NCBI GenBank assembly: GCA_965178125.1
Contig: OZ237761.1
Location: forward strand, 868,001-923,300
Source: Bilabrum cf. latius
Lineage: Eukaryota
Direction: 5' to 3'
DNA: 55,300 nt
Shown here: in pieces, positions 27,406 to 53,790 of the stretch
Numbering within the stretch: position 1 is the stretch's first letter
How the letters are laid out: every line of letters starts with the position of its first letter
The notes under the pieces: generated by a model
Told to the model about the DNA's origin: nothing
Database searches by the model: none
What the model saw: only the letters and a program-made list of their open reading frames with translations
Position numbers and translations under genes: made by a program

Positions 27406-30191
27406 TCCGAATCCCCTTGCGACCATAACTGTCCCAACCAACTGCAACTGTCCCAAGATTCAAATGCGACCACTTCTTGAGCTCATACAGGTCTCAATTC
27501 TAGAGTTATGCAAGCATCCTCCTCCAGTTCTAAAGAATCATCAATACTCGACGCAATTGACGACTCGGATACTCGGGCTATCCTTCAGGTGTCTGTGGAT
27601 GACGTGAATCGTGTGCTCGCTTGGCGCACGGCCTTGGAGCAATCGGTAGAAGAATGCACAGCTGAGCAGCCTGAGATGCGACTATATGAAGCGCAGCAAG
27701 CAGATTATATAATTTACAAGCAAAAGCTTTAGGTGTGGAGGGAGAGAAATCCCGGTAAGGTTCAAAATGACAGTGAAATCTACCGAGAGATTCAAAATGA
27801 GGTGTACCCAGAAAAGACGTTTAGCGCTGTCCGGAAGCGATTCCAGCGAATCTAGCAACGATTAACGTGCCCCCTACAGGATTTGTGTTGGCGAACAGAT
27901 TTGCCCTAGTATGTTGAACGGGCACTTGCGAAGCTGGTCATATTGCGAGAGGATGAGAAGGTGCCGTTCACGCTTGAAGGACTGCGCCGAACTGCAACAG
28001 GCCTTCGCAACGACTTTTGTGCTGGTTCACACAAGGATGGGGTGCCACTATCGCGTGTGTGGTCAACCAGATTTCTAAAGGCTCATAAACTGAAGGATTT
28101 GCAAGGTGAAGAGAAGACAATCAATCGTAGCGTGGCGGAGAGCCACACGTGCTTGCTGGACTGGTTTGGCGAAGGAGCAGCAAAACGAGGCCTGGTACTC
28201 AATACTGAGCTTGGCGTCGTCGTGTCAGGGACGTGCATTTATCACGAACGATTGTAGTTAAACATAGATGAGACTGTGATCATACTGCATGCCCAGCCAG
28301 GGTAGGGCGCAAGGGTTGACGGGGCGGACCGTCTGGTGGTCAGGGCCGAATCGCCCCGTGCTGCGCTTCGCGCGACGCATTTTTCCAATACAAACGTATC
28401 ATTCGTTCCTGTTGTATCAGCGAAGGATGGAATTGTTGCTGGCCTTCTCGTTTTCCGCTACGATGGCAAGTCTCAAAAGGTCAAACGCGAGATCCAGCGC
28501 GAGCAGGAATATGTGGCAGCCCGGTTGCAACGTGCGCAAGCCCAGCGCGATGCGGGCAAGCTCGACGACGACGGCCTGAAGGCGGAGCTCGAGGATATTC
28601 TAGCTGAGGTAAGGCTATCTGGGAATGTTGTGGACCCCTCGTCTGTCCAGAAACTCTTCTTGGTGCTAGCCAAGACGGACATCGAGCTCCTCGACATCAT
28701 CGTGTTCTGTGCGACCCCCTCCGGCTACAGCAACGTCGGGTCCTTGTCCCTGCTGCTTCCAAAGATCGTGGAGTACGCAGCTAGAGTGCGAAGGGAAGAG
28801 AGGCTCCCTCCCACAGCTAGAGTACTGCTCACGATGGACAACCACTCGACGCATGACCAGCGGAGCCTCAGGAAGTTCTGCGCTGCCAACAACATCGACA
28901 TCGAGCTCCTCCTTCCAATGAGCACCCACTTCCTGCAGCCCCTGGACGTCGCGTGCATGTCGTCCTTCAAAGCAGAGCTTCGTGGTGTTAAGAAAGACTT
29001 CTGTGTCTATCTGAGCTAGCTTCATTTCATGGAAGCATTCATGGCGTCTGCCCCGGAGGCGAAGAAGTCGGCACTAGCGAAGGCGTCGTGTGACGCGATC
29101 GGGGAGGAGTGGATCGCACCGCTGGTCTTGACCTGTGCAAGCCACAGCTTTCGAGCTTCGAATGCTGCTAGTGGATTCAAGAAGTGCGGACTTCTCCCGT
29201 TCAACCCTTCCGTTGTAGTTGACATGGACAAAGTCAAGCAGCACAGGGCCACGCTACAGAGGGCCCGGGAGGGGGCCAGTGGTAGTGAGCTGTCAGACGT
29301 AGCCAAAATACTGGAGAGTATCCCGACAGAGTCAGGATCTTTCGTGAAGAGTACTACGGCTGCCAGTGGAGCAGGCGCATCTGAGCCGTAGTCATCATCC
29401 TCGTCTGCTGTGCTTGGGCCTGCCACGGCTGACAACCTCGGGGGACTGGCGAGCGCACAGCGCGTGGTGAGCGCCCATGATGCCCTGGCGAAGAGACGCC
29501 CCAACACGGCTGCATTCCTGAGATTAGCAGGTTTGGGGCTTCAAGCAAAGATTGAAAGCGCAGCTCGGGCACAACAATCTCAGAAAAGGCGACCAAGGCT
29601 GAAGGGGCTGCAAGGCAACCGTGGGGCCATCGGGCCCCGGGGGGGCGGGGGTGACGCCGCTTAGCTGCGGAAAAATCAGATGCGCGACCGCCCACTCTAG
29701 GATCAGTCCACAGATGAGATTATTGAGCAGCTTGAGGAGGCTAGAGTCAACCTGGACGCAATGAGAGCTCAGAATCAGGCCCTCAAGGCCAAGATCGCGA
29801 AGATCTAGGCTGCAAGCAACAAGAGGGCCATGCCAGCTTCAAAGAAGCGTCGAACTTAATATTTTTATATATGATTATACTGCTATTATACTGGAAACCT
29901 GAAAAAAAAGTGTGAAATGCGAGATATTTAGGACTTTGAAGTTGGGACAGTTGTGATTTTTACCAGGCGCGATCATGCCGGCCGCCAAGGCCGCCATCTT
30001 TGGTCGGTCATAGCTTGAAGAGAACATGTCGTCCTGAAAATCTGGTTACAGTTTTGAAATCTCCTTGAAAACCTGCTTCATTACCGAAAAGGACAGGGCC
30101 ATAGTTGGACATTATTGCTCCGAATTTTGCGACTGAAGTTGGGAATTTTGCCGTTCAGCTTGGGACAGTTATGGTCGCAAGGGGATCCGGA
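27406..30191 (+). mobile_element. pogo/Fot1-like (Tc1-mariner superfamily) DNA transposon, ~2.8 kb
   Basis: 32-bp terminal inverted repeats 27406-27437 (TCCGAATCCCCTTGCGACCATAACTGTCCCAA) and 30160-30191 with one mismatch, enclosing a DDE transposase; TA lies to the left but there is no clean right TSD. Confidence 0.88.
27508..29859 (+). CDS. DDE_1 / CENP-B-like transposase (783 aa with TAG=Gln; 10 in-frame TAG)
   Basis: NIDET...LTMDNHSTH...THFLQPLDV with 35 residues between the last two Asp (DD35D); SGFKKCGLLPFNP; one frame with no TAA/TGA until TAA 29857. Confidence 0.9.
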
Positions 30192-30659
30192 ATCCTTTAT
30201 CAGCAGCACTCCACAGGCCAATATTTTGGTTTCTTCGGGTGATTTCAAGCAAACTCAAGTTGCATTAACTGTTTGCTCCAACTACCAGTGCAGATATATG
30301 CGGGTTTCCCGGAGGCAGGCGTCTGCACTTTGCCGCGTTGAGTTTGTGCGACGTGTCCAGGGCAGAATCCCCAAGTTGCTCATTACCTAGAACGAGCTCA
30401 ATCTGAATCAAGTTAGATATTTTGACGGTGTAGGCTTATGGTCTCACGAAAATTAGTTGTTCCTTTGCTTTCGAGGTCAATCCAATTGCATTGCTGCGTG
30501 ATCGACAACCATTAATCGCAGGCTTTCACCATTGACAGCGTAGTGAGAACCAATAGATTGTATGAACCACTTTCTGCATTGGTACGACCAGTTCGGAGAC
30601 CTTTGGTATCAGCGAGGTGTTGCTCAACTGCCCAAGACTCCAGCTGGCGTTAGCCAGTG

Positions 30660-33600
30660 ATGCAGACCTGGATACAGACCTTCAAGACGTCACTTAAACT
30701 TCGAAATATTGGACGCATGACGTGGCTTGTGCAAAACAAGTTGGGCGACGTGGTTAGCCTGGTTCCCAGCGTTTAGGAGTGTCAGGACGTGGAAAAACAG
30801 TGTTTATTGCTGAAGCACCTCGGGAGGGCCGCTATCGACGCTCCGCACCTCGTGATTAATCTAAAGGATGACTAGGAGCTCTCCGCTCGTGATGTTATGA
30901 GTGCATTCGATCGAAGCACTGGGGATCAAGCAAGGGGTCCCATGACAAACGGCAGCGAGACCTGCTTCGAGATGGCTGCGCCGCTAGCCGAGATTGACGC
31001 CAGTCTTCTTGGCACGGTCCTGGACACCCAACATCGAGGGTTCATTCTGTCCGATGCATATACGAATGGTATTAGAGAGCTTGACCGTGCTATTCAAGGT
31101 GTGCTGAAGGAGTTGCCAGCAGCAACAAGGAGAGCTCGAGAGGAGGCCCTGGCCGATATCGCGGATGGCCGCCCCCCGAAGGGCTACCTCAAGGACGCGC
31201 ACTATTTGGATGTGCCTGACTGCAGCTGGGTTCCACAACTCAGCAAGCGTGCAGAAGAAGTGGAGTTTGAAATCAAGGGCGATTTCAAGGGACCCGACCT
31301 GGAGACTGCCGTGAGGAACCGCATCGCCAGTGCAGCAGACTCAGACGTCAGCTCAATTGTTGCAGCGGTCCGAGATTCGCTTCTGCTGATTGGAGAGGCG
31401 TCAGTTGCTGTGAGCGGCTTCCAAGGATTTATGGATGCACCAATTCTTCCTATCGTGGACGCAAGGTGTGGGTCTCAACGTGAGGGTTGGTTAGACTTGT
31501 TCATCTCAGAATCTCTCACGGCCAACACTTTGGGAGCATCTTCAGTTATGCGTGGCGGTGTGGTCACAGGCTTCAAAGGATGCGGCAAGTCTGAGCTTAT
31601 TTAGAACGTGATCTTTGGAAAGGCACTCATGCGATGGGCACTAGCACCATCGGGCGATAAACCCTCGGGTTCCAAGTCGGCAGCAAGCCTGGCATTCCAT
31701 GCAAGGCTGAGCTCGGTACCGACAATGACCCACGTCGGTATCTACGTCAAGGACCCCACCGGACATATTGGTGACTTGAGGTATGCCAGCCCAGTTGCAT
31801 TAATTGCCGCTGGCCTGACCAAGCTAGGGCTCATAGATGCCGACAGTCCGCCTATATGGGCCATACCAGACGAGCTCACCCCCACCTCCATGGGACGCTG
31901 GCTTTCAGAGCATAACATCCACGTTGCGCTGGCCATCGATGAAGCTCAAAAGGTGCAGATGTCACCCGAAGGATCCGAGGACTGGCATTACCGTGCCATG
32001 GCCCGCAAGTACTGGAATATCCTGGAAGACATGTTGAGGATGCAGGAGGGCAAGCCCACGGTCTTCTTGACCGGCTCCCACAAGAACCTAGCCAAGGAAG
32101 TGTATGGTCCTGTGCGTGGGCACCGGGTGCTACAGGGTGACAAGTTTCTTGTCCGCACACTGCCCAATACGTATTCTGAACCGGAACTGCACCTCATGTT
32201 GCTGCGGTAGCAACCACAAAAACAGCAACCCGACTGCGTCAATCCCAAGCAACTGAATCCCCCGCTCAAATGGCCTTCGGTATCTGCGGCTGATGCGGTT
32301 CTGGCCTTGACGTACTACTTGCGCAAGCGAGATAACTTCAAGATTGGGAAGTGGTGGCACCAGGTTGGGTACCTTATGCAGCCCAGTTTGAAACACCTTG
32401 TGCACTTAATCTAGTCTGGGTTATCGGTTCAGGATGCACGGAATACCAAGGGTGCCTCGGTCGGCAGAATTACTGTCGAAATTGCTCAGAGGCATCTGCA
32501 AGACCATCGGGTGCTTAATGCTGCGAAATTGGCCCGCGAGCGGGTCGTTCGCGCGTATTTGCTGAATGGGGTTCTTGCAAGGAGCCTTGGGGAGCTTGGA
32601 GGGACTAGCGTTAACTTCAAGAATTATGTCAAGGCGATGATGGATCGCAAAACGCTTTTCAGCAGGTTTGCAGTTGCGCTCGTGCGAGCCTCTGCCGCAG
32701 ACTCTGCAAGCGAGCAAGCGATGCTCAACCATGACGATCCTCTCCAAGCCATGCCGCGAGTATCACTGTCCGCCGTCATGGTCTACTTGGAAGAGGTCAG
32801 CAATGAATTGCTCCCGCCAGATCGGGTTGCGTCAGATCGTCAGTATTATGAAGATAAGCTCCATGCTTTGCTGCGAGATTGGCACGACAACCAGTGGGTA
32901 GTGTACTACTCTCCCGAGGAACAGGAGTTCAACGAAATTGAGCCGCAGCTTGGCTCGGGGCATGTGCAGCTGCCCAATCTGGCATACGCAAGAGTAGCCC
33001 TGCAGGTCGATCTCACCCGCCAGGTGACCTCCCGACGGGTGACAACGGAGAAGAGTACGACTTAGTAATCGCCGAGTCTCTACATCGTTATTTCAAGTCC
33101 AAGGTACTGGACAAGGGCCGCCTGCCTTCTTTGCCGAGAGACGTGTAGACTTCGGAGCCTGGGGTGCTGAAGCTATCATGGGATCGAAGTAGTCCGTCTG
33201 CGCCCAACACCAATAGCTTCAGTCGGGCCGCATTGACGGTGGGGGAGTTGGTGGCAATGGAAGTCTGCAGGTGGCCTCGTCCTAGCAATTCTTGGCCTTT
33301 GGTCAACTATTCAAGGAGCTTCCAGACCGATTCGGAGCTGATCTCGCCATGGTTCTGCGGCAGAGAACCAAGGCCAGCCGCTAGAAGCCTATCTATAACG
33401 TGGTTCGTATCCAAGTCAAAGCCGGGTTCTCGCAAAAACCAGTACTTGGCGCTAGCAAATTGAAGAAATTGCTTTGCCAGGATACGCAGGCAGAGGCTCA
33501 CCGGTGGTATTGCAGCTTTTTTGGTGAGGACCCCACCTCTAGCAACGTGGTCATGCACTGACTCCTCATTACTAGCAAGCCTGTGAATGACGCTGTGCAA

Positions 33601-33975
33601 AACCTGGCTAGCCATTTGGAGACGACAAACCCCATATCTGTAGCGATGGGGAGAAAGCAGCGCCCTGGCAGGAAGCCCGAGCCGATCCCGCAGCAGGAGA
33701 ACATGGACGTGATCTACGGAGATGACCTGCCGGAGTTGCTATTCGCCGATGCGCGACTATACTTGGCTAGGAGACGGGTCCTGCTGAGCGAATCTGAAGA
33801 AGATGCACGTGAAGCCTAGTAGGCGCTGCAGCTTGTCCTCAGGGAGGTTTTCGGCGAGCTTGCTCTCGGAATCGCTAGTAAGAAGGCCGGCAACTTGGAT
33901 TCAATCAACCTTGCTGAAGCCCACTGGGAGCAGCGCAAGCTCACCAGTGGTGTTACTAGTTCTGTGGTTCTATGA
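30660..33975 (+). pseudogene. NTPase-nuclease gene copy 1: NTPase half open to TAA 33066-33068, nuclease half disrupted
   Basis: Walker A GFKGCGKS and Walker B ALAIDEAQ; compared with copy 3 there is a frameshifting deletion near 33020, a second frameshift near 33200-33280, and CGA>TGA at 33559; start codon uncertain. Confidence 0.75.
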
Positions 33976-33999
33976 ATCATGATCCGCCGCAAGGGATTC

Positions 34000-34261
34000 T
34001 TCTTCCTATCGTGGACGCAAGGTGTGGGTCTCAACGTGAGTTTTGGTTGGACGTGTTTCTCAAGGAAGCATTCGCGACCACAACTTTCGGGTCATCTGTA
34101 ATGCGTGGCGGTGTGGTCACAGGCTTCAAAGGATACGGTAAGTCCTAGCCGATACGGAATGTTATCTTTGGAAAGGCACTCATGCGTTGGGCACTTGAAC
34201 ACTCGGGAGAGCCATCTATGGATTCGCTTCGAAGGGCGAGCTCGAAACCCAACGTGACCCA
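34000..34261 (+). pseudogene. Fragment of the copy-3-type NTPase gene (Walker A region)
   Basis: Near-identical to 41094-41355 (GFKGYGKS variant). Confidence 0.85.
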
Positions 34262-34273
34262 AGCAACATCTCT

Positions 34274-34973
34274 GCTGACTGCGAGGCCTCGGAGCTGGCG
34301 CACTCGAAGGGTGTGTCAATGCCGTGGCAGTGTCTCCAAATGACAGAGTACTGGCAGTTGCATCCCAGGACAAGACTGTGTCTGTCTGGGATGCAGGTGT
34401 ACCATCCACATCGAACCCGAAGGCAGGAGGCCTCGCGCGCGTAGGTGTGCTCAAGGGCCATCGAAGGGGTGTGTGGTGCTGCGAGTTCAGCCCAATTGAA
34501 CAGATCGTCGTGACTGGGTCGTCAGACAAGACGATCCGATGCTGGAACGCGCGCACTATGCAGTGCATGCGGACTCTGGAGGGGCATGGAGCATCTGTTC
34601 TCCAGGTCCGGTTCTGCAATGGAGGCAAGGACCTCGTGTCGGCGGCAGCTGTCGGCATACTCAAGGTGTGGAGCATGCAGGCAGCAGCGTGCAAGTTCAC
34701 TGCGGATGCACACGCCGATCGGGTGTGGGCCCTTGCTGTGCCCAAGACCAGGGATGCTGCTGACCAGGGGGAGAGGAGTCGTCGTCTCCGCCTGTGGTCG
34801 CCGTGTCTGGTGGTGCAGATGGAACCATCCGGGTGTGGCGAGACCACACGAGCTAGCTCAAGCAGGAGGCATCGCAGGCCCAGCTCCGCAAGGCTTCAGC
34901 CGGGAGTAGTCTGGCAGCTGCAATGGCTGGGAGGAGATACGCCACTGCCTTTTCACTTGCGCTGGAGCTCGAG
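34274..34973 (+). pseudogene. Captured internal fragment of UTP13, copy a
   Basis: Near-identical to 25107-25805 with small indels (extra GT, short deletions). Confidence 0.92.
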
Positions 34974-35478
34974 TTTGAAACGTGCACATAGTGTTCGGAT
35001 GTGGTAGATTTCTAAATTCCAGCAGCACTCCACAGGCCAATATTTTGGTTTCTTCGGGTGATTTCAACCAAACTCAAGTTGCATTAACTGTTTGCTCCAA
35101 CTACCAGTGCAGATATATGCGGGTTTCCCGGAGGCAGGCGTCTGCACTTTGCCGCGTTGAGTTTGTGCGACGTGTCCAGGGCAGAATCCCCAAGTTGCTC
35201 ATTACCTAGAACGAGCTCAATCTGAATCAAGTTAGATATTTTGACGGTGTAGGCTTATGGTCTCACGAAAATTAGTTGTTCCTTTGCTTTCGAGGTCAAT
35301 CCAATTGCATTGCTGCGTGATCGACAACCATTAATCGCAGGCTTTCACCATTGACAGCGTAGTGAGAACCAATAGATTGTATGAACCACTTTCTGCATTG
35401 GTACGACCAGTTCGGAGACCTTTGGTATCAGCGAGGTGTTGCTCAACTGCCCAAGACTCCAGCTGGCGTTAGCCAGTG

Positions 35479-38400
35479 ATGCAGACCTGGATACAGACCT
35501 TCAAGACGTCACTTAAACTTCGAAATATTGGACGCATGACGTGGCTTGTGCAAAACAAGTTGGGCGACGTGGTTAGCCTGGTTCCCAGCGTTTAGGAGTG
35601 TCAGGACGTGGAAAAACAGTGTTTATTGCTGAAGCACCTCGGGAGGGCCGCTATCGACGCTCCGCACCTCGTGATTAATCTAAAGGATGACTAGGAGCTC
35701 TCCGCTCGTGATGTTATGAGTGCATTCGATCGAAGCACTGGGGATCAAGCAAGGGGTCCCATGACAAACGGCAGCGAGACCTGCTTCGAGATGGCTGCGC
35801 CGCTAGCCGAGATTGACGCCAGTCTTCTTGGCACGGTCCTGGACACCCAACATCGAGGGTTCATTCTGTCCGATGCATATACGAATGGTATTAGAGAGCT
35901 TGACCGTGCTATTCAAGGTGTGCTGAAGGAGTTGCCAGCAGCAACAAGGAGAGCTCGAGAGGAGGCCCTGGCCGATATCGCGGATGGCCGCCCCCCGAAG
36001 GGCTACCTCAAGGACGCGCACTATTTGGATGTGCCTGACTGCAGCTGGGTTCCACAACTCAGCAAGCGTGCAGAAGAAGTGGAGTTTGAAATCAAGGGCG
36101 ATTTCAAGGGACCCGACCTGGAGACTGCCGTGAGGAACCGCATCGCCAGTGCAGCAGACTCAGACGTCAGCTCAATTGTTGCAGCGGTCCGAGATTCGCT
36201 TCTGCTGATTGGAGAGGCGTCAGTTGCTGTGAGCGGCTTCCAAGGATTTATGGATGCACCAATTCTTCCTATCGTGGACGCAAGGTGTGGGTCTCAACGT
36301 GAGTTTTGGTTAGACTTGTTTCTCAAGGAAGCATTCGCGACCACAACTTTCGGGTCATCTGTAATGCGTGGCGGTGTGGTCACAGGCTTCAAAGGATGCG
36401 GCAAGTCTGAGCTTATTTAGAACGTGATCTTTGGAAAGGCACTCATGCGATGGGCACTAGCACCATCGGGCGATAAACCCTCGGGCGATAAACCCTCGGG
36501 TTCCAAGTCGGCAGCAAGCCTGGCATTCCATGCAAGGCTGAGCTCGGTACCGACAATGACCCACGTCGGTATCTACGTCAAGGACCCCACCGGACATATT
36601 GGTGACTTGAGGTATGCCAGCCCAGTTGCATTAATTGCCGCTGGCCTGACCAAGCTAGGGCTCATAGATGCCGACAGTCCGCCTATATGGGCCATACCAG
36701 ACGAGCTCACCCCCACCTCCATGGGACGCTGGCTTTCAGAGCATAACATCCACGTTGCGCTGGCCATCGATGAAGCTCAAAAGGTGCAGATGTCACCCGA
36801 AGGATCCGAGGACTGGCATTACCGTGCCATGGCCCGCAAGTACTGGAATATCCTGGAAGACATGTTGAGGATGCAGGAGGGCAAGCCCACGGTCTTCTTG
36901 ACCGGCTCCCACAAGAACCTAGCCAAGGAAGTGTATGGTCCTGTGCGTGGGCACCGGGTGCTACAGGGTGACAAGTTTCTTGTCCGCACACTGCCCAATA
37001 CGTATTCTGAACCGGAACTGCACCTCATGTTGCTGCGGTAGCAACCACAAAAACAGCAACCCGACTGCGTCAATCCCAAGCAACTGAATCCCCCGCTCAA
37101 ATGGCCTTCGGTATCTGCGGCTGATGCGGTTCTGGCCTTGACGTACTACTTGCGCAAGCGAGATAACTTCAAGATTGGGAAGTGGTGGCACCAGGTTGGG
37201 TACCTTATGCAGCCCAGTTTGAAACACCTTGTGCACTTAATCTAGTCTGGGTTATCGGTTCAGGATGCACGGAATACCAAGGGTGCCTCGGTCGGCAGAA
37301 TTACTGTCGAAATTGCTCAGAGGCATCTGCAAGACCATCGGGTGCTTAATGCTGCGAAATTGGCCCGCGAGCGGGTCGTTCGCGCGTATTTGCTGAATGG
37401 GGTTCTTGCAAGGAGCCTTGGGGAGCTTGGAGGGACTAGCGTTAACTTCAAGAATTATGTCAAGGCGATGATGGATCGCAAAACGCTTTTCAGCAGGTTT
37501 GCAGTTGCGCTCGTGCGAGCCTCTGCCGCAGACTCTGCAAGCGAGCAAGCGATGCTCAACCATGACGATCCTCTCCAAGCCATGCCGCGAGTATCACTGT
37601 CCGCCGTCATGGTCTACTTGGAAGAGGTCAGCAATGAATTGCTCCCGCCAGATCGGGTTGCGTCAGATCGTCAGTATTATGAAGATAAGCTCCATGCTTT
37701 GCTGCGAGATTGGCACGACAACCAGTGGGTAGTGTACTACTCTCCCGAGGAACAGGAGTTCAACGAAATTGAGCCGCAGCTTGGCTCGGGGCATGTGCAG
37801 CTGCCCAATCTGGCATACGCAAGAGTAGCCCTGCAGGTCGATCTCACCCGCCAGGTGACCTCCCGACGGGTGACAACGGAGAAGAGTACGACTTAGTAAT
37901 CGCCGAGTCTCTACATCGTTATTTCAAGTCCAAGGTACTGGACAAGGGCCGCCTGCCTTCTTTGCCGAGAGACGTGTAGACTTCGGAGCCTGGGGTGCTG
38001 AAGCTATCATGGGATCGAAGTAGTCCGTCTGCGCCCAACACCAATAGCTTCAGTCGGGCCGCATTGACGGTGGGGGAGTTGGTGGCAATGGAAGTCTGCA
38101 GGTGGCCTCGTCCTAGCAATTCTTGGCCTTTGGTCAACTATTCAAGGAGCTTCCAGACCGATTCGGAGCTGATCTCGCCATGGTTCTGCGGCAGAGAACC
38201 AAGGCCAGCCGCTAGAAGCCTATCTATAACGTGGTTCGTATCCAAGTCAAAGCCGGGTTCTCGCAAAAACCAGTACTTGGCGCTAGCAAATTGAAGAAAT
38301 TGCTTTGCCAGGATACGCAGGCAGAGGCTCACCGGTGGTATTGCAGCTTTTTTGGTGAGGACCCCACCTCTAGCAACGTGGTCATGCACTGACTCCTCAT

Positions 38401-38806
38401 TACTAGCAAGCCTGTGAATGACGCTGTGCAAAACCTGGCTAGCCATTTGGAGACGACAAACCCCATATCTGTAGCGATGGGGAGAAAGCAGCGCCCTGGC
38501 AGGAAGCCCGAGCCGATCCCGCAGCAGGAGAACATGGACGTGATCTACGGAGATGACCTGCCGGAGTTGCTATTCGCCGATGCGCGACTATACTTGGCTA
38601 GGAGACGGGTCCTGCTGAGCGAATCTGAAGAAGATGCACGTGAAGCCTAGTAGGCGCTGCAGCTTGTCCTCAGGGAGGTTTTCGGCGAGCTTGCTCTCGG
38701 AATCGCTAGTAAGAAGGCCGGCAACTTGGATTCAATCAACCTTGCTGAAGCCCACTGGGAGCAGCGCAAGCTCACCAGTGGTGTTACTAGTTCTGTGGTT
38801 CTATGA
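35479..38806 (+). pseudogene. NTPase-nuclease gene copy 2: open to TAA 37897-37899, same nuclease-half lesions as copy 1
   Basis: Near-identical to copy 1, plus a 15-bp duplication near 36480 and a copy-3-type tract at ~36301-36365. Confidence 0.75.
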
Positions 38807-38830
38807 ATCATGATCCGCCGCAAGGGATTC

Positions 38831-39092
38831 TTCTTCCTATCGTGGACGCAAGGTGTGGGTCTCAACGTGAGTTTTGGTTGGACGTGTTTCTCAAGGAAGC
38901 ATTCGCGACCACAACTTTCGGGTCATCTGTAATGCGTGGCGGTGTGGTCACAGGCTTCAAAGGATACGGTAAGTCCTAGCCGATACGGAATGTTATCTTT
39001 GGAAAGGCACTCATGCGTTGGGCACTTGAACACTCGGGAGAGCCATCTATGGATTCGCTTCGAAGGGCGAGCTCGAAACCCAACGTGACCCA
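38831..39092 (+). pseudogene. Second fragment of the copy-3-type NTPase gene
   Basis: Repeat of 34000-34261 at +4831. Confidence 0.85.
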
Positions 39093-39104
39093 AGCAACAT
39101 CTCT

Positions 39105-39804
39105 GCTGACTGCGAGGCCTCGGAGCTGGCGCACTCGAAGGGTGTGTCAATGCCGTGGCAGTGTCTCCAAATGACAGAGTACTGGCAGTTGCATCCCAGG
39201 ACAAGACTGTGTCTGTCTGGGATGCAGGTGTACCATCCACATCGAACCCGAAGGCAGGAGGCCTCGCGCGCGTAGGTGTGCTCAAGGGCCATCGAAGGGG
39301 TGTGTGGTGCTGCGAGTTCAGCCCAATTGAACAGATCGTCGTGACTGGGTCGTCAGACAAGACGATCCGATGCTGGAACGCGCGCACTATGCAGTGCATG
39401 CGGACTCTGGAGGGGCATGGAGCATCTGTTCTCCAGGTCCGGTTCTGCAATGGAGGCAAGGACCTCGTGTCGGCGGCAGCTGTCGGCATACTCAAGGTGT
39501 GGAGCATGCAGGCAGCAGCGTGCAAGTTCACTGCGGATGCACACGCCGATCGGGTGTGGGCCCTTGCTGTGCCCAAGACCAGGGATGCTGCTGACCAGGG
39601 GGAGAGGAGTCGTCGTCTCCGCCTGTGGTCGCCGTGTCTGGTGGTGCAGATGGAACCATCCGGGTGTGGCGAGACCACACGAGCTAGCTCAAGCAGGAGG
39701 CATCGCAGGCCCAGCTCCGCAAGGCTTCAGCCGGGAGTAGTCTGGCAGCTGCAATGGCTGGGAGGAGATACGCCACTGCCTTTTCACTTGCGCTGGAGCT
39801 CGAG
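39105..39804 (+). pseudogene. Captured internal fragment of UTP13, copy b
   Basis: Repeat of 34274-34973 at +4831. Confidence 0.92.
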
Positions 39805-40309
39805 TTTGAAACGTGCACATAGTGTTCGGATGTGGTAGATTTCTAAATTCCAGCAGCACTCCACAGGCCAATATTTTGGTTTCTTCGGGTGATTTCAACC
39901 AAACTCAAGTTGCATTAACTGTTTGCTCCAACTACCAGTGCAGATATATGCGGGTTTCCCGGAGGCAGGCGTCTGCACTTTGCCGCGTTGAGTTTGTGCG
40001 ACGTGTCCAGGGCAGAATCCCCAAGTTGCTCATTACCTAGAACGAGCTCAATCTGAATCAAGTTAGATATTTTGACGGTGTAGGCTTATGGTCTCACGAA
40101 AATTAGTTGTTCCTTTGCTTTCGAGGTCAATCCAATTGCATTGCTGCGTGATCGACAACCATTAATCGCAGGCTTTCACCATTGACAGCGTAGTGAGAAC
40201 CAATAGATTGTATGAACCACTTTCTGCATTGGTACGACCAGTTCGGAGACCTTTGGTATCAGCGAGGTGTTGCTCAACTGCCCAAGACTCCAGCTGGCGT
40301 TAGCCAGTG

Positions 40310-43300
40310 ATGCAGACCTGGATACAGACCTTCAAGACGTCACTTAAACTTCGAAATATTGGACGCATGACGTGGCTTGTGCAAAACAAGTTGGGCGACG
40401 TGGTTAGCCTGGTTCCCAGCGTTTAGGAGTGTCAGGACGTGGAAAAACAGTGTTTATTGCTGAAGCACCTCGGGAGGGCCGCTATCGACGCTCCGCACCT
40501 CGTGATTAATCTAAAGGATGACTAGGAGCTCTCCGCTCGTGATGTTATGAGTGCATTCGATCGAAGCACTGGGGATCAAGCAAGGGGTCCCATGACAAAC
40601 GGCAGCGAGACCTGCTTCGAGATGGCTGCGCCGCTAGCCGAGATTGACGCCAGTCTTCTTGGCACGGTCCTGGACACCCAACATCGAGGGTTCATTCTGT
40701 CCGATGCATATACGAATGGTATTAGAGAGCTTGACCGTGCCATTCAAGGTGTGCTGAAGGAGTTGCCAGCAGCAACAAGGAGAGCTCGAGAGGAGGCCCT
40801 GGCCGATATCGCGGATGGCCGCCCCCCGAAGGGCTACCTCAAGGACGCGCACTATTTGGATGTGCCTGACTGCAGCTGGGTTCCACAACTCAGCAAGCGT
40901 GCAGAAGAAGTGGAGTTTGAAATCAAGGGCGATTTCAAGGGACCCGACCTGGAGACTGCCGTGAGGAACCGCATCGCCAGTGCAGCAGACTCAGACGTCA
41001 GCTCAATTGTTGCAGCGGTCCGAGATTCGCTTCTGCTGATTGGAGAGGCGTCAGTTGCTGTGAGCGGCTTCCAAGGATTTATGGATGCACCAATTCTTCC
41101 TATCGTGGACGCAAGGTGTGGGTCTCAACGTGAGTTTTGGTTAGACTTGTTTCTCAAGGAAGCATTCGCGACCACAACTTTCGGGTCATCTGTAATGCGT
41201 GGCGGTGTGGTCACAGGCTTCAAAGGATACGGTAAGTCCTAGCTGATGCGGAACGTGATCTTTGGAAAGGCACTCATGCGTTGGGCACTTGAACACTCGG
41301 GAGAGCCATCTATGGATTCGCTACGAAGGGCGAGCTCGAAACCCAACGTGACCCACGTCGGTATCTACGTCGATGACCCTACCGGATCGATCGGTGACTT
41401 GAGGTATGCCAGCCCGGTTGCGCTGATTGCCGCCGGTCTTGCAAAAGCAGGGATCATAAATGCCAACAGTCCGCCCAACTGGGCCAGGACTACATGCCAG
41501 CTCACTCCTAAACTCATGGGAGAGTGGCTGTCGGAACACAACATCCACGTTGTGCTGGCCATGGACGAAGCTCAAAAGGTGCGCATACCTGATGAAGGAT
41601 CCAGGGACTGGCACTACCGAAAAATGGTATCCGAGTTTTGGACGATCATGGCCGACATGATAAACATTGAGCAGCGGAGGCCCACAGTCTTCTTGACTGG
41701 CTCGTAGAAGGGCCTAGCTAAAGAAGTGTATGGGCCAGTTGATGGGCGCGATGTGCTTCAGGACGACAAATTTCTCGTCAATGCAATGCCCAATGTGTAT
41801 TCTGAACCGGAACTGCACCTCATGCTGCTTCGGCAACAACTCTCAAGTGATCAGGAACCTGACGACGTTTCTGAATAGCAGCAAGGTGCGCCGTTTGAAC
41901 GCCGCTCAGTGACAGCAGCTGATGCAGTTCTAGCCTTGGCATTCTGCTTGCGCAAGCAGGGCGGCTTCAAGCTCGGTCAGTGGTGGCACCAGGCTGGGTA
42001 CCTTGTTCAGCCCAGTTTGGAACACGCATTGCGCTCACTCTAGCCTGGTTCACATGTTCAGAATGGCAAGAGTGCACCGGTCGGCAGGATTACCCTGGAA
42101 ATCGCTGAGAGGCACCTGAAAGACAACGGAGTACTTGCCTCGGCAAAATCCGCCAATGACCGTATCTTGAGAGCGTATATGCTGAACGGGGTAATTGCAA
42201 GGAGCCTGGGGGCGCTCCAGGGGACTAGTGTCAAGTTCAGATCTTACATAAGGGCGATGACGGACCGCAAGTCTCTGTTCAGCAGATTTGGAGTTGCTCT
42301 CGCTCGAGCTTCTCTTGCAGGTGGTGCAGCAAGCAAGCAAGCGATGCTCGACCTCGATGATCCTTTCCAGGGCATGCCGCTAGTATCATTGTCTACCGTC
42401 AAGGTCTACTTGAAACAGGTCAGCGATGAATTGCTGCCGACAGATCAGGTTACCTCAAATTGCCTCAAGTACCAAGATGGGCTTGATGGTTTGTTGCGTA
42501 AGTGGCACGATGACTAGTGGTTGATATACCACACTCCTGAGGAGCAGAAGTTCAATCAAATCAAACCGCACTCTGGGTACGTGCAGTTTCCTAACCTGGC
42601 ATACACAAGAGTGGCGCTGCAGGTCGATCTCACCCGAGACATCTTCTTGACAGTTCGGGAGCAACAGGCACTTGACCTTCCGACGGGTGACTTCGGAAAG
42701 GGTTATGAGATGGTAATCGCTGAGTCTTTGCGGCGCAATTTCAAGTCCAAGGTAGTACAAGACGAGAAGCGGCTGCCATCTTTGCCCGCAGACGTGTACT
42801 CCTCGAAACCTGGTGTATTGGAGCTGGCTTGGGATCGAATGAAACCGTCCTCACCCGACCAGCTGCTTCGATTGGAAGAGCTGGGAGATTCCGGGACTAA
42901 GCGCAAGAAGCGTCGACCTGGGATTGTGGTTAGGCAATTCTCGGCTTTTGGTCAAATTTTCAGGGAGCTTCCGGACTAGTTCGGCGCTGATCTCGCCATG
43001 GTGCTGCGAAGCAACGCCAGTCCCGAGAATGCTGACAAGTAGATCTTTCACGTCATTCGGATTCAGGTCAAGACTGGCTCTCAATCCCAAGTAAATGACG
43101 CTAGCGATCTGAAGCAGATGCTTTCCCAGGATACACGAGCCGATGTCCATCAAAGGTACTGTAGATTGCTTGGCGAGGACCACACCTCGGGCAAAGTGGT
43201 AATGCACCGACTCCTCGTCACTAGCAAGCCTGTGAATAAGCCTATGCGCAAGCTGGCCGGCCAAGCATAGAAGGGAGAGAGGCGGCCCGGCAGGTAGCCC

Positions 43301-43591
43301 AAGCCAATCCCGCAGCAAGAGAACATGGACGTGATCTACGATGATGACCTGCATGAGTTGCTGTTCGCAGATGCACGGCTGTATCTGGCTAGGAGGCGAG
43401 TCCTGCTGAGTAAAACAGAAGAAGAGGCACGCCAAGCTTAGGAGGTGCTGAGTAGTGTCCTCAAAGAGGTTGAGCTCGAGCTTAAACTTGGATATGAAAG
43501 CATTGAGGCCGGCAAATTCGACTCAACCAGCCTTGCGGAAGCTTGGTGGAGTCAGCACCGGCACGTCAATGATATTCGCTAGCATATCTAA
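40310..43591 (+). CDS. Intact P-loop NTPase + PD-(D/E)XK nuclease-like protein (~1090 aa, ~13 in-frame TAG), Crinkler/RHS-effector-like; start uncertain
   Basis: GVVTGFKGYGKS (Walker A), VVLAMDEAQ (Walker B), VFLTGS; C-terminal GKGYEMVIAESL...GADLAMV...IRIQVKTG; single frame to TAA 43589. Confidence 0.72.
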
Positions 43592-43675: not shown

Positions 43676-43860
43676 ACCCACCACATGACCAGCTATCCCC
43701 CGAATAGACTCATCCGGGGCACTCTCCCGACACCCACCACATGACCAGCCTGACCCCCCGCATGGACTCATCCAGGGCACTATCCCGACACCCACCACAT
43801 GACCAGCCTGACCCCCCGCATGGACTCATCCAGGGCACTATCCCGACACCCACCACATGA
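43676..43860. repeat. Telomere-adjacent ~58-bp tandem repeat, 3+ units
   Basis: ACCCACCACATGA recurs at 43676, 43732, 43790 and 43848; followed by degenerate TTTAGGG-like units at 43861-43893. Confidence 0.9.
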
Positions 43861-43949: not shown

Positions 43950-44129
43950 TTAGGGTTAGGGTTAGGGTTAGGGTTAGGGTTAGGGTTAGGGTTAGGGTTA
44001 GGGTTAGGGTTAGGGTTAGGGTTAGGGTTAGGGTTAGGGTTAGGGTTAGGGTTAGGGTTAGGGTTAGGGTTAGGGTTAGGGTTAGGGTTAGGGTTAGGGT
44101 TAGGGTTAGGGTTAGGGTTAGGGTTAGGG
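43950..44129 (+). repeat. Telomeric (TTAGGG)n array 1, ~30 units
   Basis: Perfect TTAGGG repeats. Confidence 0.98.
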
Positions 44130-44185
44130 TATCTAATATAAAGTCAGGGACAGGGTCGGGGAAAAAAAATTTCATCTTCATTTTT

Positions 44186-44404
44186 TGTCGAAAATGTGCC
44201 CTCTGCGATCTCAGCAACTAGAATAGGTATGAAGATGATTCAAACTGTTTGGGGACGGCCTAGGGCCATATCATGGGGCAAATGTTCCCCAGGTTCCGTT
44301 TTGACCGCGCGGCGACGATACTGGCTGATGAAGATTTACATGTCGAAAATGTGCCCTCTGCGATCTCAGCAACTAGAATAGGTATGAAGATGATTCAAAC
44401 TGTT
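44186..44404. repeat. 64-bp direct repeat (44186-44249 and 44341-44404) in the spacer between telomeric arrays
   Basis: TGTCGAAAATGTGCCCTCTGCG...GATTCAAACTGTT present twice. Confidence 0.9.
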
Positions 44405-45092
44405 AGGGTTAGGGTTAGGGTTAGGGTTAGGGTTAGGGTTAGGGTTAGGGTTAGGGTTAGGGTTAGGGTTAGGGTTAGGGTTAGGGTTAGGGTTAGGGTT
44501 AGGGTTAGGGTTAGGGTTAGGGTTAGGGTTAGGGTTAGGGTTAGGGTTAGGGTTAGGGTTAGGGTTAGGGTTAGGGTTAGGGTTAGGGTTAGGGTTAGGG
44601 TTAGGGTTAGGGTTAGGGTTAGGGTTAGGGTTAGGGTTAGGGTTAGGGTTAGGGTTAGGGTTAGGGTTAGGGTTAGGGTTAGGGTTAGGGTTAGGGTTAG
44701 GGTTAGGGTTAGGGTTAGGGTTAGGGTTAGGGTTAGGGTTAGGGTTAGGGTTAGGGTTAGGGTTAGGGTTAGGGTTAGGGTTAGGGTTAGGGTTAGGGTT
44801 AGGGTTAGGGTTAGGGTTAGGGTTAGGGTTAGGGTTAGGGTTAGGGTTAGGGTTAGGGTTAGGGTTAGGGTTAGGGTTAGGGTTAGGGTTAGGGTTAGGG
44901 TTAGGGTTAGGGTTAGGGTTAGGGTTAGGGTTAGGGTTAGGGTTAGGGTTAGGGTTAGGGTTAGGGTTAGGGTTAGGGTTAGGGTTAGGGTTAGGGTTAG
45001 GGTTAGGGTTAGGGTTAGGGTTAGGGTTAGGGTTAGGGTTAGGGTTAGGGTTAGGGTTAGGGTTAGGGTTAGGGTTAGGGTTAGGGTTAGGG
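44403..45092 (+). repeat. Telomeric (TTAGGG)n array 2, ~115 units
   Basis: Perfect TTAGGG repeats. Confidence 0.98.
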
Positions 45093-45391
45093 TATCTGGG
45101 GGTCATGTTAGGATCGGGGCACGCCCTTTTTTTGACCAAAAAAAAAAACGCCGCACATTATATATATTTAGATAGCCCTTGATCAGTAGAGCTGATTTAT
45201 GGTTGGTTGGCGGCACTCATTTCCAATATTGAGTGAGATATGGGGAGGTTTAGGGTCACCAGTTGAGCGGATGATTTTGGCAGGTCGTTTTAGGCATGTT
45301 CAAAGACGAATGGCCATTTGATTGTCTATGTTGTTATCAGAAATGGCCAACAATATGGTATGCATAGCTTGTGTGCCCTGGTTGGGCATTC

Positions 45392-46575
45392 GCGGCGCCA
45401 GTTCCGCAGGATTGGTGAAAACTCCTTCTAGGAGCGGTTTCGCCTAGTGGTCCATCCGGAGTCAATATTGAGTGGTCCCATCGGATGCGTCTCGATGAGT
45501 AGATCACTTTGATGGTTGGTTGGCGGCACTCATTTCCAAAATTGAGCGAGATATGCCCAGGTTGGCGGTTGGCACCCAGCTGTGCCAGGGCTACTTGTAG
45601 GTTGGCGGTTGGCGAAAATTCAAATTTCGATTCACAAATCGAGACTTATATCATTCGATAGCTCTGGATCATAGAAGTCCTACACGGTAATTTGGGCGTG
45701 TCATCATGCGATGCGGCGCCGGTTCCGCAGGATTGGTGAAAACCTTCTAGGAGCGGTTTCGCCTAGTGGTCCATCCGGAGTCAATATTGAGTGGTCCCAT
45801 CGGATGCGTCTCGATGAGTAGATCACTTTGATGGTTGGTTGGCGGCACTCATTTCCAAAATTGAGCGAGATATGCCCAGGTTGGCGGTCGGCACCCAGCT
45901 GTACTTGTAGGTTGGCGGTTGGCGAAAATTCAAATTTCGATTCACAAATCGAGACTTATATCATTCGATAGCTCTGGATCATAGAAGTTCTACACGGTAA
46001 TTTGGGCGTGTCATCATGCGATGCGGCGCCGGTTCCGCAGGATTGGTGAAAACCTTCTAGGAGCGGTTTCGCCTAGTGGTCCATCCGGAGTCAATATTGA
46101 GTGGTCCCATCGGATGCGTCTCGATGAGTAGATCACTTTGATGGTTGGTTGGCGGCACTCATTTCCAAAATTGAGCGAGATATGCCCAGGTTGGCGGTTG
46201 GCACCCAGCTGTGCCAGGGCTACTTGTAGGTTGGCGGTTGGCGAAAATTCAAATTTCGATTCACAAATCGAGACTTATATCATTCGATAGCTCTGGATCA
46301 TAGAAGTCCTACACGGTAATTTGGGCGTGTCATCATGCGATGCGGCGCCGGTTCCGCAGGATTGGTGAAAACCTTCTAGGAGCGGTTTCGCCTAGTGGTC
46401 CATCCGGAGTCAATATTGAGTGGTCCCATCGGATGCGTCTCGATGAGTAGATCACTTTGATGGTTGGTTGGCGGCACTCATTTCCAAAATTGAGCGAGAT
46501 ATGCCCAGGTTGGCGGTTGGCACCCAGCCGTGCTTGTAGGTTGGCGGTTGGCGAAAATTCAAATTTCGATTCACA
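45392..46575. repeat. Satellite of ~310-320-bp units, about 3.7 copies
   Basis: GTTCCGCAGGATTGGTGAAAA recurs near 45401, 45722, 46032 and 46351; partial diverged copy at 45195-45241. Confidence 0.93.
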
Positions 46576-46627
46576 TATCAAGGCACAAATAGCTCACAAG
46601 GAAGGAGATGCCGATATCAAGGCATTT

Positions 46628-48298
46628 TCAATGCTCTGCTCCGTCCGCTGCTGCGGCCGCTTGGCGAGCATCCAGGACTCCTGTGATGTAGGCCATGCGC
46701 TGCTCCAGGCGTTCCAGCAGCCAGTCTGCATTCTCGCCTTCACGGACATCGCACATCCGGACCTGGTTTCCAGCTCTGCGCTTCTGCTTCCCGATCCTCT
46801 TGGAGTTGTCCTTGTACTTTTGAACCTCCTAGACGGTGATCGGGGCTGCACCTCCTGCTTGTGGTGCTGGCGGGACTGGTGCTTGACCTGCAGCTCCTGC
46901 AGCAACTTGTGCTGGTGGGGCTGGTGCTTGACCTGCAGCTCCTGCAGCAGCTTGTTGGGCTGGTGGGACTGGTGCTTGACCTGCGGCTCCTGCAGCAGCT
47001 TGTGCTGGTGGGACTGGCCCTTGACCTGCAGCTCCTGCAGCAGCTTGTGCTGGTGGGACTGGTGCTTGACCTGCAGCTCCTGCAGCAGCTTGCGCTGGTG
47101 GGACTGGTGCTTGACCTGCAGCTCCTGCAGCAGCTTGTTGGGCTGGCGGGGCTGGTGCTTGACCTGCAGCTCCTGCAGCAGCGTGTGGTGCTGGTGGTGC
47201 TGGAGCCGGGGCTGGGGCCTGGGAGTTCCCGCGACGAGCTCTTAGGCGACCATTTGACCGCCCTTTGCGGCTCCGCATACCTGATGCATGCATCTCCGCC
47301 TCCTCCTCTGCCTTCTCGTCGTCGAAATCAGAGCCCTCATCGTCGCTCTCGGAGTCGTCGTCACTGGGAGCCGCCTCACCATCGTGCTCATCCTCGCTGT
47401 CGCTCCCACTTTCATCATGCTGGTCGTAGGACGAGGCACTTCCCGCGCCCCTGCCTGCGCCCGATGCAGCGCCCGTGCGTCCAGGAGCCTTCCCCTTGTG
47501 ACGAGCCGCAGAGCGTTTGGACTTGGCTGCTGCTGCTGCCGCGCCCGCCTCGTCGTCCTCATCGGATTCGCCCTCCTCAAAGACATGCCTGAGCAGAGCA
47601 TTCCGAAATCCTCGGCTGGCCTTGGAGCCCGAGATGCGCCGCGACTTGCCAGGTGCACCCCTCGCGGCTCGCCCCCGTGCCGGGCCGATCGAGCCCTTGG
47701 CCGAACTGGACCCGCCGCGGGCCTTATGACGTCCAACTGGCCCTGGTTGGGGCACTGCCAGGATCCTTGGCATCATGTCGTCCTTGGTGCTGAACCAGGA
47801 CGTCTGCATGTCCTCTGACCCGAAGACATCCTGCAAGACCGCCTGCATAGCGTTGTCCTCCGTACGACTGCCGTGTCGCCGTGCCATCCTCACAAGCCAC
47901 CCAGGAATATCATGCACCTTCCTCTTGTTTAGGGCAGCGCGACCATTCACCAACCATGTGATCTTGCCTACAGTCCAGTCATCGTCACGAGCCTTCCTGA
48001 CCGCCTCCAAGAAGTTTTCTACGCCGTCCTCCGCTCCCCCGCGACTGGCGAACGCGTAGGCAACTGCATCGGTTGTCGTGTTGTCTGCAACTTCCACGTC
48101 GACCTCCATGTCCTCCAGAACGGCCTGAACTTGCTCGCGGACTCGGCCTCGCACATCCTCGGCGGGCGCAAGCACGCAGCCTGTCCCCTTCAGGAAGCCA
48201 TGCAGCGTAACCACAAGGACCTTGGCGGCGTTGGCCCTCGGTGTCTTGCCGATGATGTCCACGATGGTCTGAGAGATGTCGTTGTGCTTGGGTGGCAT
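46628..48298 (-). CDS. Hypothetical protein with acidic/basic low-complexity tracts and (AAAGAAGQAPVPPAQ)n repeats; TAG at 46829 read through
   Basis: Long ORF with host-like GC3 from MPPKH (48298; upstream starts possible) to TGA 46628; 42/45-bp coding repeats at ~46860-47190. Confidence 0.6.
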
Positions 48299-49674
48299 GG
48301 CCTGCGCGAAGAAGAAGTGCGGCAGATAGCGCAAGATAGGTTGTGGCTGCGGTGGGAGGGCGGCACCACATGCAGCTGCCGTGCGCAGACACAGCACTGG
48401 ACCAACCATTCGATATGGCACCAAGGGGTCCATTCCAATCAGGAAACATGCCACTATTCGATGCAACATAGGTTGCAACCGGGCATCTCAAGTTGCAACC
48501 GGTCGTTGTCGCACAAGCAAACCAGATTGGCAGTAGCGTGCACTTTCCAGCCACCACCAATTGCAGTTGGGAGGGATGCCCTCATTTCAGCTCGGACAAA
48601 GGCCACAGTGAGACAACCAGGCATTCGTGTGTACTTAAATAGTAATATTGCATACATCTGGCAAGGTCGGAAGTCACAAAGCTCGAGCATTGCAACGATC
48701 ATAAGGTCATGTCAGCAGACGCACCTCGCTCCCAGACAAATCACCAAATTGCGCCCCGCAGGAAAAGAAAATCGCCGCGGCGCGCGTTGCAATCAAAACG
48801 TGAGACAACAATGCAACTATAGACGCGCGGCTGCATGGCAGTTTGCGCGCAGGATAGTGCGCGCACAGGGCGAATCCATTCCAGCTGTCCGGCGCACCCA
48901 GCACGTTGGGCCAATTTTCGCCATGTTACCGCGGACAATTTTCAATCGCAGGCTCCCAAAGTCTATTTTAGACATCATTGAATACAACTGTTCGCTATAA
49001 TTCTCACGTGAGTTCTTTTTTGTGGGTTTGAAAAATGAGCGTCTCGCGTCCGACAGCGGGCCGGCTGCGTGGCCGTCCGGAGCCGTTTTGCGGGGGAGGG
49101 GTGTGATGAGTGCACCGTGCGCCGTGCCCCTGTTGGATGTCATGCCTAACTGAAGCTCATTGGAGTACTATTACCCCTGTGCCATGGTTCTCCGGCCCTG
49201 GACCAGGCCTCGTGCACCCAAATTCCGGCCGGTCGGCACCAGCCCTCCAGACGGGGGTGCGCGCGGCCCCGGGAGGCGACGGGGGCGGGTGCCCGACCAT
49301 GCAATGTGTTCTTGTGGCCCTTGGAGGCAAAGGCAGCCGCCCCTTGTTCCCTGACGATGTGTGTCTGGCTTGCTGCACCGGTGCGGAGGTGCTCGCCGGG
49401 TGGGCCCCGCGCTGCGGGGCCTTCCCAGGCTCCTATCCTGCAGTGTGCTGCAGGGTGCACTGCAGGGTGCTGTTAGTGTCTGCTGCATGTATTGTCGCAT
49501 GTCTGCTACGTTGCTAGTGCCGCGGGAGCGTTCTCGACCCGTCCCGCCAAGCTCCCCCACTGCCCCCCACTGCCGCCCACCGCACCATCCACATGTATGG
49601 AGCGCTGCGTTCTGTTTGTCTCCCGCTGTGGACTCTAGCTTACTCCTACCAATGCTACTCCTTGCGACCGCAGG

Positions 49675-53760: not shown

Positions 53761-53790
<30 letters not shown>

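Follow-up and report, generated by a model that had tools for sequence, protein, structure and literature searches.

The Locus and Its Reading Frame

The DNA analyzed here (hereafter the window) is a 55,300-nucleotide stretch of contig OZ237761.1 (positions 868,001 to 923,300) in the Bilabrum cf. latius assembly GCA_965178125.1. Its main subject is a gene at window positions 40310..43591, on the forward strand, which lies shortly before telomere repeats, belongs to a tandem array of three copies, and encodes an AAA+ ATPase joined to a candidate nuclease domain. With TAG read as an amino acid, the gene is open from its ATG over 1093 codons, 13 of them in-frame TAG; frame 1 of the interval (1094 codons including the stop) is free of TGA and has TAA only at its end, whereas each of the other five frames contains 15-52 TAA and TGA codons, such that the open frame is not explicable by chance. 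Under the standard code the same interval yields only pieces of 60-231 amino acids (aa), and in protein catalogues built with that code such genes are present only in unlinked pieces.

In-frame TAG is not peculiar to this gene: the genes for kinesin, OST48, Utp13, and malonyl-CoA decarboxylase, as well as other Pfam-supported genes of the window, contain 2-9 each. TAG311 aligns with the glutamine of a family motif (GKSQL) in 12 of 16 external homologues, TAG578 pairs with glutamine in both of the homologues that could be compared, and TAG736 does so in the single one. These alignments support glutamine as the meaning of TAG, which is a sense codon throughout in the source organism. TAA seems to remain a stop codon, given that no host-like gene of the window contains it in frame; reading TAA as glutamine (table 6) merges no host open reading frame (ORF). 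The preliminary description of this DNA held that TAG recoding hides the gene from standard tools, which is borne out by the 1093-codon frame with its 13 TAG and by the TAG positions that align with glutamine. Per window gene, TAG makes up 0-24% of the glutamine codons. Keyword searches of the literature found no account of this organism's genetic code.

A Recombining Array at a Probable Chromosome End

The gene is copy C, the sole intact member of a head-to-tail array on the forward strand with a unit of ~4.82 kb. Unit A (30201..35019) holds a gene copy at 30660-33966 whose frame changes twice and which has a TGA at 33559; unit B (35020..39850) holds a copy at 35479-38797 with the same lesions and, in addition, a patch resembling copy C (36263-36458); unit C, from 39851 onward, holds the intact copy. 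Relative to copy C, the frame changes lie near aa 780 and aa 850-875 and the common TGA falls in the C-terminal domain, and the open frames of copies A and B end at 802 and 806 aa. Units A and B are 99.3% identical, and unit C equals unit B over its first 1.44 kb (to 41289), beyond which identity drops to ~74%; over aa 876-1093, copy C is 57% identical to copy A. Given that unit B carries a C-like patch and that unit C matches unit B for 1.44 kb, the array copies exchange sequence.

The spacers between the gene copies contain host-gene fragments, also on the forward strand: a 262-bp piece from the gene's own P-loop part (34000..34261, with a second copy at 38831-39092), which matches 41094-41355 at 97% identity, and a 705-bp piece from a Utp13/WD40 gene (34270..34973, with a second copy at 39101-39804) that derives from 25103-25805 (98.7% identity). 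The parent Utp13 gene, assigned by Pfam, lies ~5 kb upstream of the array. Just upstream of the array is a gene for a pogo-type DDE_1 transposase-like protein of 783 aa (27508..29859, forward strand; 10 TAG codons, TAA stop). The region 27.5-43.6 kb has a GC content of 0.538 vs 0.606 in the rest of that contig (upstream), and GC at third codon positions (GC3) is near 0.60 in both the DDE_1 gene and the array copies. Stop usage in the window is likewise split: all 10 host-like genes end in TGA, and TAA is used only by the DDE_1 gene and by all three copies of the array.

Downstream of the gene, a 58-bp tandem repeat (3.2 copies, 43676..43860) is followed on the forward strand by a (TTAGGG)30 array at 43950..44130, 359 bp beyond the stop codon, and by a (TTAGGG)115 array at 44402..45093, 811 bp beyond it. 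Position 45093 is probably the end of a contig, i.e., of a chromosome. A third array, (TTAGGG)77, occupies 53760-54221 and is directly followed by bacterial-type genes on the minus strand (54222-55300), namely SspB (E 4.7e-50), DUF4169, and RHH_4, which indicates that the window crosses joins of separate contigs; we place a join between a eukaryotic and a bacterial contig near 54222, with the bacterial part a contaminant or an associate. A comparison of the sequences that follow two of the TTAGGG arrays found TATCT in common and little else. The gene had been described as telomere-adjacent, which the two arrays beyond the stop codon bear out; the locus is also a recombining, multi-copy subtelomeric one, in view of the three-copy array, the gene-conversion patches, and the pseudogene copies A and B.

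Such a setting recalls the subtelomeric Y' elements of yeast and the telomere-linked helicase genes of fungi. The gene might accordingly be a chromosome-end element that spreads by subtelomeric recombination, with a product perhaps acting on telomeric or subtelomeric DNA; 4.8-kb tandem units next to telomere repeats, gene conversion between the copies, and a second, short TTAGGG array inside the end region would all fit. However, this pattern comes from one chromosome end, no telomere repeats separate the array units, the encoded protein combines an AAA+ ATPase with a nuclease-like domain and is no helicase (see below), and nothing links the gene to telomere function. We regard this as the least likely of the explanations considered here.

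Gene Model, Occurrence in Public Runs, and Selection

The coding region probably extends upstream of the ATG at 40310. Contigs from two public sequencing runs (X1 and X7) join position 40061 directly to 40172, and those from two others (X3 and X8) retain the intervening 110 nt. This segment (40062..40171, forward strand) begins with GT and ends with AG, contains an in-frame TGA, and has a length that is no multiple of 3; within the window it occurs only at 30412-30521, 35231-35340, and 40062-40171, once per array unit. The frame is open over 39867-40061, in phase with the sequence from 40172 onward. These features suggest a putative spliceosomal intron and a gene of two exons on the forward strand, 39948..40061 (the first ATG of the joined form, with 38 Arg-rich codons) and 40172..43591 (the main coding exon, which includes the ATG at 40310 given in the preliminary description and the TAA stop at 43589-43591), for a predicted protein of 1177 aa. 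The earlier start would add 84 residues, Arg-rich and poor in acidic residues, ahead of the ATG at 40310. By composition, this extension resembles an organelle-targeting or nuclear-targeting peptide. Given that no run is on record as RNA and that X1 is flagged as probably DNA, the joint in X1 and X7 may instead represent an intron-less allele, i.e., a presence/absence difference between strains, and not spliced RNA. Residue numbers below are counted from the ATG at 40310.

Contigs from 8 public runs, which belong to 4 studies, contain the part of the gene specific to copy C (41350-43591), with 0.80-0.99 of the sampled words present and few or no differences between copy C and the run contigs compared. 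The ratio of nonsynonymous to synonymous substitution rates (dN/dS, omega) between copies C and A is 0.33 (443 codons, dS 0.73), and within the C-terminal domain it is 0.375 and 0.255. The gene is under purifying selection; from the low dN/dS, the lineages of both copies were so constrained during most of the time since they separated, and copies A and B acquired their lesions recently.

Relatives in Environmental Sequences

An exhaustive HMMER search of 1.84 billion representatives (E up to 0.001) returned 30 proteins, which, P0020 apart, are unnamed and 59-575 aa long; they originate from Logan, ENA, JGI, and one ocean-sampling record. P0020 (4774 aa) was rejected as a spurious, repeat-inflated match. 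In metagenome contig L001, the NTPase piece P0022 and P0018, which covers the linker and the beginning of the C-terminal domain, lie in a single open frame with 4 TAG codons, from which it follows that the relatives represent longer genes fragmented at TAG; P0010 and P0030 each derive from a contig of 4263 bp. Several TAG-recoded organisms therefore share the family and the order of its domains.

The family is lineage-restricted and new, with no named relatives. PADLOC, NCBIfam, and PHROGs contain no match to the window protein, and the PDB gave no meaningful match by sequence or profile. Neither the whole protein nor the C-terminal domain retrieved anything in a word-indexed protein search, and a profile query retrieved only four relatives that were already known. 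Searches with one short peptide pattern, which are weak evidence of absence, yielded no match for the C-terminal domain and one locus for the NTPase among metagenome contigs, and no relative among prokaryote genomes and viral contigs. Keyword searches of the literature found no description of the family, although searches of this kind cannot find a family that has no name.

The N-terminal region of the protein (aa 1-249; 40310..41056, forward strand) belongs to no family recognized in Pfam scans, and is conserved in seven of the environmental fragments (P0002, P0003, P0005, P0010, P0027, P0028, and P0031).

An AAA+ ATPase of ORC/Cdc6-TnsC Type

The region of aa about 250-510 (41057..41839, forward strand) contains an intact Walker A motif (G303-FKGYGK-S310, at 41216-41239), which fits GxxxxGK[ST], and an intact Walker B motif (V414-VLAMD-E420, at 41549-41569), which fits hhhhDE. 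In the family alignment (11 sequences), the G, G, K, and S positions of Walker A are invariant or nearly so. The fold was modeled with AlphaFold2 on aa 225-790, using an alignment of 23 sequences, and the core (aa 225-475) has a predicted local distance difference test score (pLDDT) of 70-93. When this model was compared with 48,161 chains in VIA-align, the best match was Aeropyrum pernix ORC2 (1w5s; Z 12.5, rmsd 4.6, 208 residues aligned), followed by TnsC of Tn7 (7mbw; Z 12.3, 232 aligned) and Cdc6/Orc1 of S. solfataricus (Z 12.2), and further by TnsC of Tn6677 (Z 11.3), MuB (Z 10.8), BrxC (Z 10.1), and Avs3 (Z 9.5). There were 77 chains at Z of at least 8, and all 50 of the matches listed are or contain P-loop ATPases; the Foldseek matches listed for the model are likewise all AAA+ ATPases (E 0.01-0.05). 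Pfam matches are weak: AAA_22 is the sole family matched by the window protein at E up to 10 (22.1 bits, below the cut-off of 27), and AAA_16 matches 6 of the 11 family members (best E 0.0016).

Based on the intact Walker motifs and the fold matches, this region is an AAA+ ATPase of the ORC/Cdc6-TnsC type, the kind that serves as a DNA-bound switch. The P-loop NTPase with Walker A and B proposed in the preliminary description is hereby confirmed, and fold comparison places it more precisely. Helices follow the ATPase core, with pLDDT <50 at model residues 253-370 and beyond, where a helical lid and, as in ORC/Cdc6, a winged-helix domain would be expected. The middle region as a whole (aa 511-789; 41840..42676, forward strand) is predicted to be mostly helical, at pLDDT mostly <50, and is conserved in P0006, P0011, P0018, P0024, P0026, and L001.

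The likeness to TnsC and MuB also bears on a possible mobile-element accessory, in which a TnsC/MuB-like target-selecting ATPase would be fused to a TnsA-like nuclease, perhaps working with the adjacent DDE transposase, and the array would result from the activity of the element. TnsC of Tn7, Tn6677, ShCAST, and Pmc, plus MuB, are among the best structural matches (Z 10.7-12.3), the DDE_1 gene lies directly upstream of the array and shares its TAA stops, GC3, and lower GC content, and pairs of NTPase and restriction endonuclease (REase) domains are linked to prokaryotic transposons in the available part of one survey (PMC5289972). However, ORC/Cdc6 proteins match the ATPase equally well, comparison of the C-terminal domain with 16 TnsA_N sequences in hhalign stays at background (P 0.10) and so gives no TnsA-type profile signal, no inverted repeats of at least 60 bp were found in the window, the DDE_1 gene lies outside the repeat unit, and head-to-tail copies that share spacers of host-gene fragments fit unequal recombination, not transposition. 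Moreover, the neighboring transposase is of the pogo type, not of the TnsB type, and we know of no use of an ATPase partner by pogo-type DDE_1 transposases. A mobile-element accessory is therefore very unlikely in our judgment.

The C-Terminal Domain as a Candidate Nuclease

The C-terminal domain (aa 790-985; 42677..43264, forward strand) is DUF4365-like and probably a PD-(D/E)xK nuclease domain, based on a profile signal and on conserved residues; it is followed by a tail (aa 986-1093; 43265..43588, forward strand). The relevant strings are GKGYEMVIAESL (E800, E805), FGADL (D894), and IRIQVK (Q919-V-K921), and the key residues are E805, D889, D894 (42989-42991), and Q919-V-K921 (43064-43072). 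A long basic insert with KRKKRR lies between helix 1 and the strands. An alignment over aa 790-985 of the window paralogues with six environmental fragments shows VxAESL in each of the six sequences that extend over that part of the domain; PD, GxDL, VxRxQVKxG, and an H further on do not vary in 6/6 sequences. An AlphaFold2 model of the domain, built with only 9 sequences, predicts the order helix, three strands, helix, strand (alpha-beta-beta-beta-alpha-beta), in which D894 opens strand 2 (model residues 123-132) and Q919-V-K921 closes strand 3 (model residues 143-152); this predicted placing is the layout of a PD-(D/E)xK site.

Profile comparisons point to a single family. DUF4365 (PF14280) is the top Pfam match in 4 of 9 family members (best E 0.0087), all below the cut-off. 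In hhalign, the family alignment matched 17 bacterial DUF4365 sequences at P 9e-4, pairing GADL with GID and QVK with QxK, and a stricter set of 11 at P 0.005; the aligned stretch spans only 47-53 columns, corresponding to the strand 2-strand 3 hairpin. DUF4365 was the only one of six families compared that gave a signal. None of 397 column shuffles reached the DUF4365 score (26.5, against at most 15.5 for the shuffles and 12.1 for the reversed alignment), although this is a lenient control, as column shuffles break up conserved blocks. A search of the ESM Atlas with the homologue P0016 (best score 0.86) also touched an Mrr_cat_2 cluster (0.81), which we treat as a lead only.

A nuclease fold is opposed by several of the same analyses. 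The model of the domain is poor (mean pLDDT 46, core 56-79). With this model, Foldseek returned nothing at E up to 0.001; its list is headed by Avs3 (E 0.049; the part of the chain is not reported), with AspBHI, EndoMS, and MspJI at E 0.1-0.25 only, among gelsolin and OsmC entries, and the best VIA-align matches are to chimallin (Z 5.6-6.6). The window's own domain scores 14.3 bits for DUF4365 vs a cut-off of 24.3, and the hhalign probability is 23% with the 17 DUF4365 sequences and 7% with the stricter set. Mrr_cat, TnsA_N, and NERD, which we take to be PD-(D/E)xK families, remained at background in hhalign (P 0.10-0.34), as did the OsmC and Response_reg controls. Lastly, copies A and B, two of the three, have lost the C-terminal domain, which may therefore be dispensable.

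These points would be expected if the domain were no nuclease at all but a lineage-specific alpha/beta domain of other function, with a D...QxK likeness that is convergent or due to chance; the absence of a significant structural match to any nuclease, the low hhalign probabilities over a short hairpin, and the loss of the domain from two copies speak for this. Yet the invariant residues are exactly those of a PD-(D/E)xK site, which they also match in their order and in the predicted elements that carry them, DUF4365 is the sole signal among the families compared and the top Pfam match in nearly half of the members, the shuffles do not reach its score, and the domain itself is under purifying selection (omega 0.26-0.38). 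We therefore consider a non-nuclease domain doubtful, and a PD-(D/E)xK nuclease fold probable. The restriction-endonuclease fold of the preliminary description is sustained as regards the invariant E...D...QxK residues and the sole profile signal, and is left without backing by structure, where the model is of low confidence (pLDDT 46) and no nuclease fold is matched significantly.

Other Features of the Window

Three further observations concern the remainder of the window. A 1326-codon open frame at 49782-54221, matching no Pfam family, runs without a stop into the (TTAGGG)77 array at 53760, and looks like a gene truncated by a chromosome break that telomere addition then healed. The telomere-ended stretch to which it belongs (45094-54221) also contains a 319-bp satellite (3.8 copies) at 45392-46579 and a 45/93-bp coding-like repeat at 46857-47203. 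At 12461-15850, three ORFs that overlap in different frames together make up a GH2 beta-mannosidase-like gene, which suggests short introns or frameshifts.

Proposed Function

The explanation toward which we lean, with somewhat better than even confidence, is that copy C is an intact, functional gene with TAG as glutamine, in a young, recombining subtelomeric array, whose product combines an AAA+ ATPase with a DUF4365-like nuclease and acts in genetic conflict. If expressed, it would yield a protein of 1093 aa from 40310, or probably of 1177 aa from 39948 after removal of the intron, in which an N-terminal region assigned to no family precedes the AAA+ ATPase of ORC/Cdc6-TnsC/MuB type, and a helical linker leads from there to the DUF4365-like C-terminal domain. 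ORC/Cdc6, TnsC, and MuB assemble on DNA in an ATP-dependent manner and control partner enzymes. By analogy with these structural relatives, the ATPase would bind ATP and assemble on DNA as an oligomer; the assembly could bring the C-terminal nuclease domains together, and the clustered domains might thereby be licensed for Mg-dependent DNA cleavage. The protein would then be an ATP-gated nuclease for genetic conflict, serving either in defense against foreign DNA or as a selfish element.

Two points tell against this proposal beyond those raised for the nuclease domain: among the runs that carry copy C, none is on record as RNA, and no result bears directly on the role of the protein. The locus, however, is easier to reconcile with a role in conflict or as a selfish element than with housekeeping, based on the young subtelomeric array, the pseudogenes, the gene conversion, the nearby transposase gene, and the atypical composition and stop usage; the gene is probably a conflict gene or a selfish element. 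Proteins that combine an ATPase and a nuclease recur in genetic conflict, in bacterial defense systems, transposon machinery, and Crinkler/RHS effectors. A chromosome end is a place where gene families diversify, and here it harbors a family that standard gene callers have not seen owing to TAG recoding.

A more far-reaching proposal is that eukaryotic AAA+-gated nucleases of the DUF4365 type, the domain that acts as effector in the abortive-infection SPARDA systems of bacteria, constitute an innate antiviral or anti-foreign-DNA system, housed in fast-recombining subtelomeric arrays of TAG-recoded marine protists and activated by ATP-driven oligomerization on invading DNA. This is speculative, and we hold it to be quite unlikely; if true, a prokaryote-style defense nuclease module would work in the eukaryotic nucleus, with chromosome ends as the site of its diversification.

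Comparison With Known Systems

With ORC/Cdc6 and TnsC/MuB, the window protein shares the fold of aa about 250-510 and intact Walker A and B motifs; it differs in sequence (identity 8-16%), and its gene has no replication or transposition context. Avs3, one of the STAND/AAA+ immune proteins, likewise combines an ATPase switch with a PD-(D/E)xK-type effector, the latter predicted in the present case. In Avs3 the nuclease is N-terminal and a large sensor is C-terminal, whereas the window protein has no recognized sensor domain, and its ATPase is nearer to ORC and TnsC than to the STAND matches.

The Crinkler/RHS (CR) proteins are similar in domain order and genomic setting. According to the available part of PMC5289972, the commonest C-terminal make-up of CR proteins is an NTPase, a helix-turn-helix (HTH), and an REase, CR proteins are found among free-living eukaryotes, and the RHS proteins of trypanosomes belong to them; RHS genes are reported at Trypanosoma cruzi subtelomeres in the available part of PMC3418195. 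The window protein could thus be a divergent but true member of this superfamily, with homologous CR-NTPase and CR-REase domains, and a DNA-directed toxin, either delivered or intracellular. Its order of NTPase, linker, and nuclease-like domain and its multi-copy, subtelomeric gene with pseudogenes agree with this, but AAA_22 is its only Pfam match, scans of the 11 family members matched neither a Crinkler nor an RHS model at E up to 1, and no Pfam family was matched at the N-terminus of the window protein or of the 11 members, where a CR header would be expected. An HTH was likewise not seen in the model, in which aa 511-789 are mostly at pLDDT <50. LKLFLAQ in P0005 and SLKL in the window protein recall LxLFLAK, the motif of the ubiquitin-like CR header (PMC5289972, available part), but not in the CR arrangement. 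Membership in the Crinkler/RHS type, as suggested in the preliminary description, is therefore not supported and in our view unlikely; the likeness is one of domain order and genomic setting only, and the protein may work like a CR module by analogy.

The nearest counterpart of the C-terminal domain is found in the short-Argonaute defense system SPARDA, the DNase of which is described, in the available part of PMC10810196, as a PD-(D/E)xK-like DUF4365 domain. The same part of that source proposes Q62 and K64 of TmuRE as active-site residues, and has Q62A/K64A prepared as an inactive control. Both domains have the pattern G-x-D ... Q-x-K, and in both a helix with a conserved E precedes the strands. 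However, the window domain is C-terminal to an AAA+ ATPase in a eukaryote, and not fused to APAZ beside an Argonaute; it also scores below the Pfam cut-off and carries the long basic insert. If nuclease activity and its control by ATP were confirmed, the DUF4365 nucleases would gain a eukaryotic branch with this family, which would also offer a tractable case for distinguishing prokaryote-like, DNA-degrading immunity from selfish telomeric nuclease genes in free-living protists.

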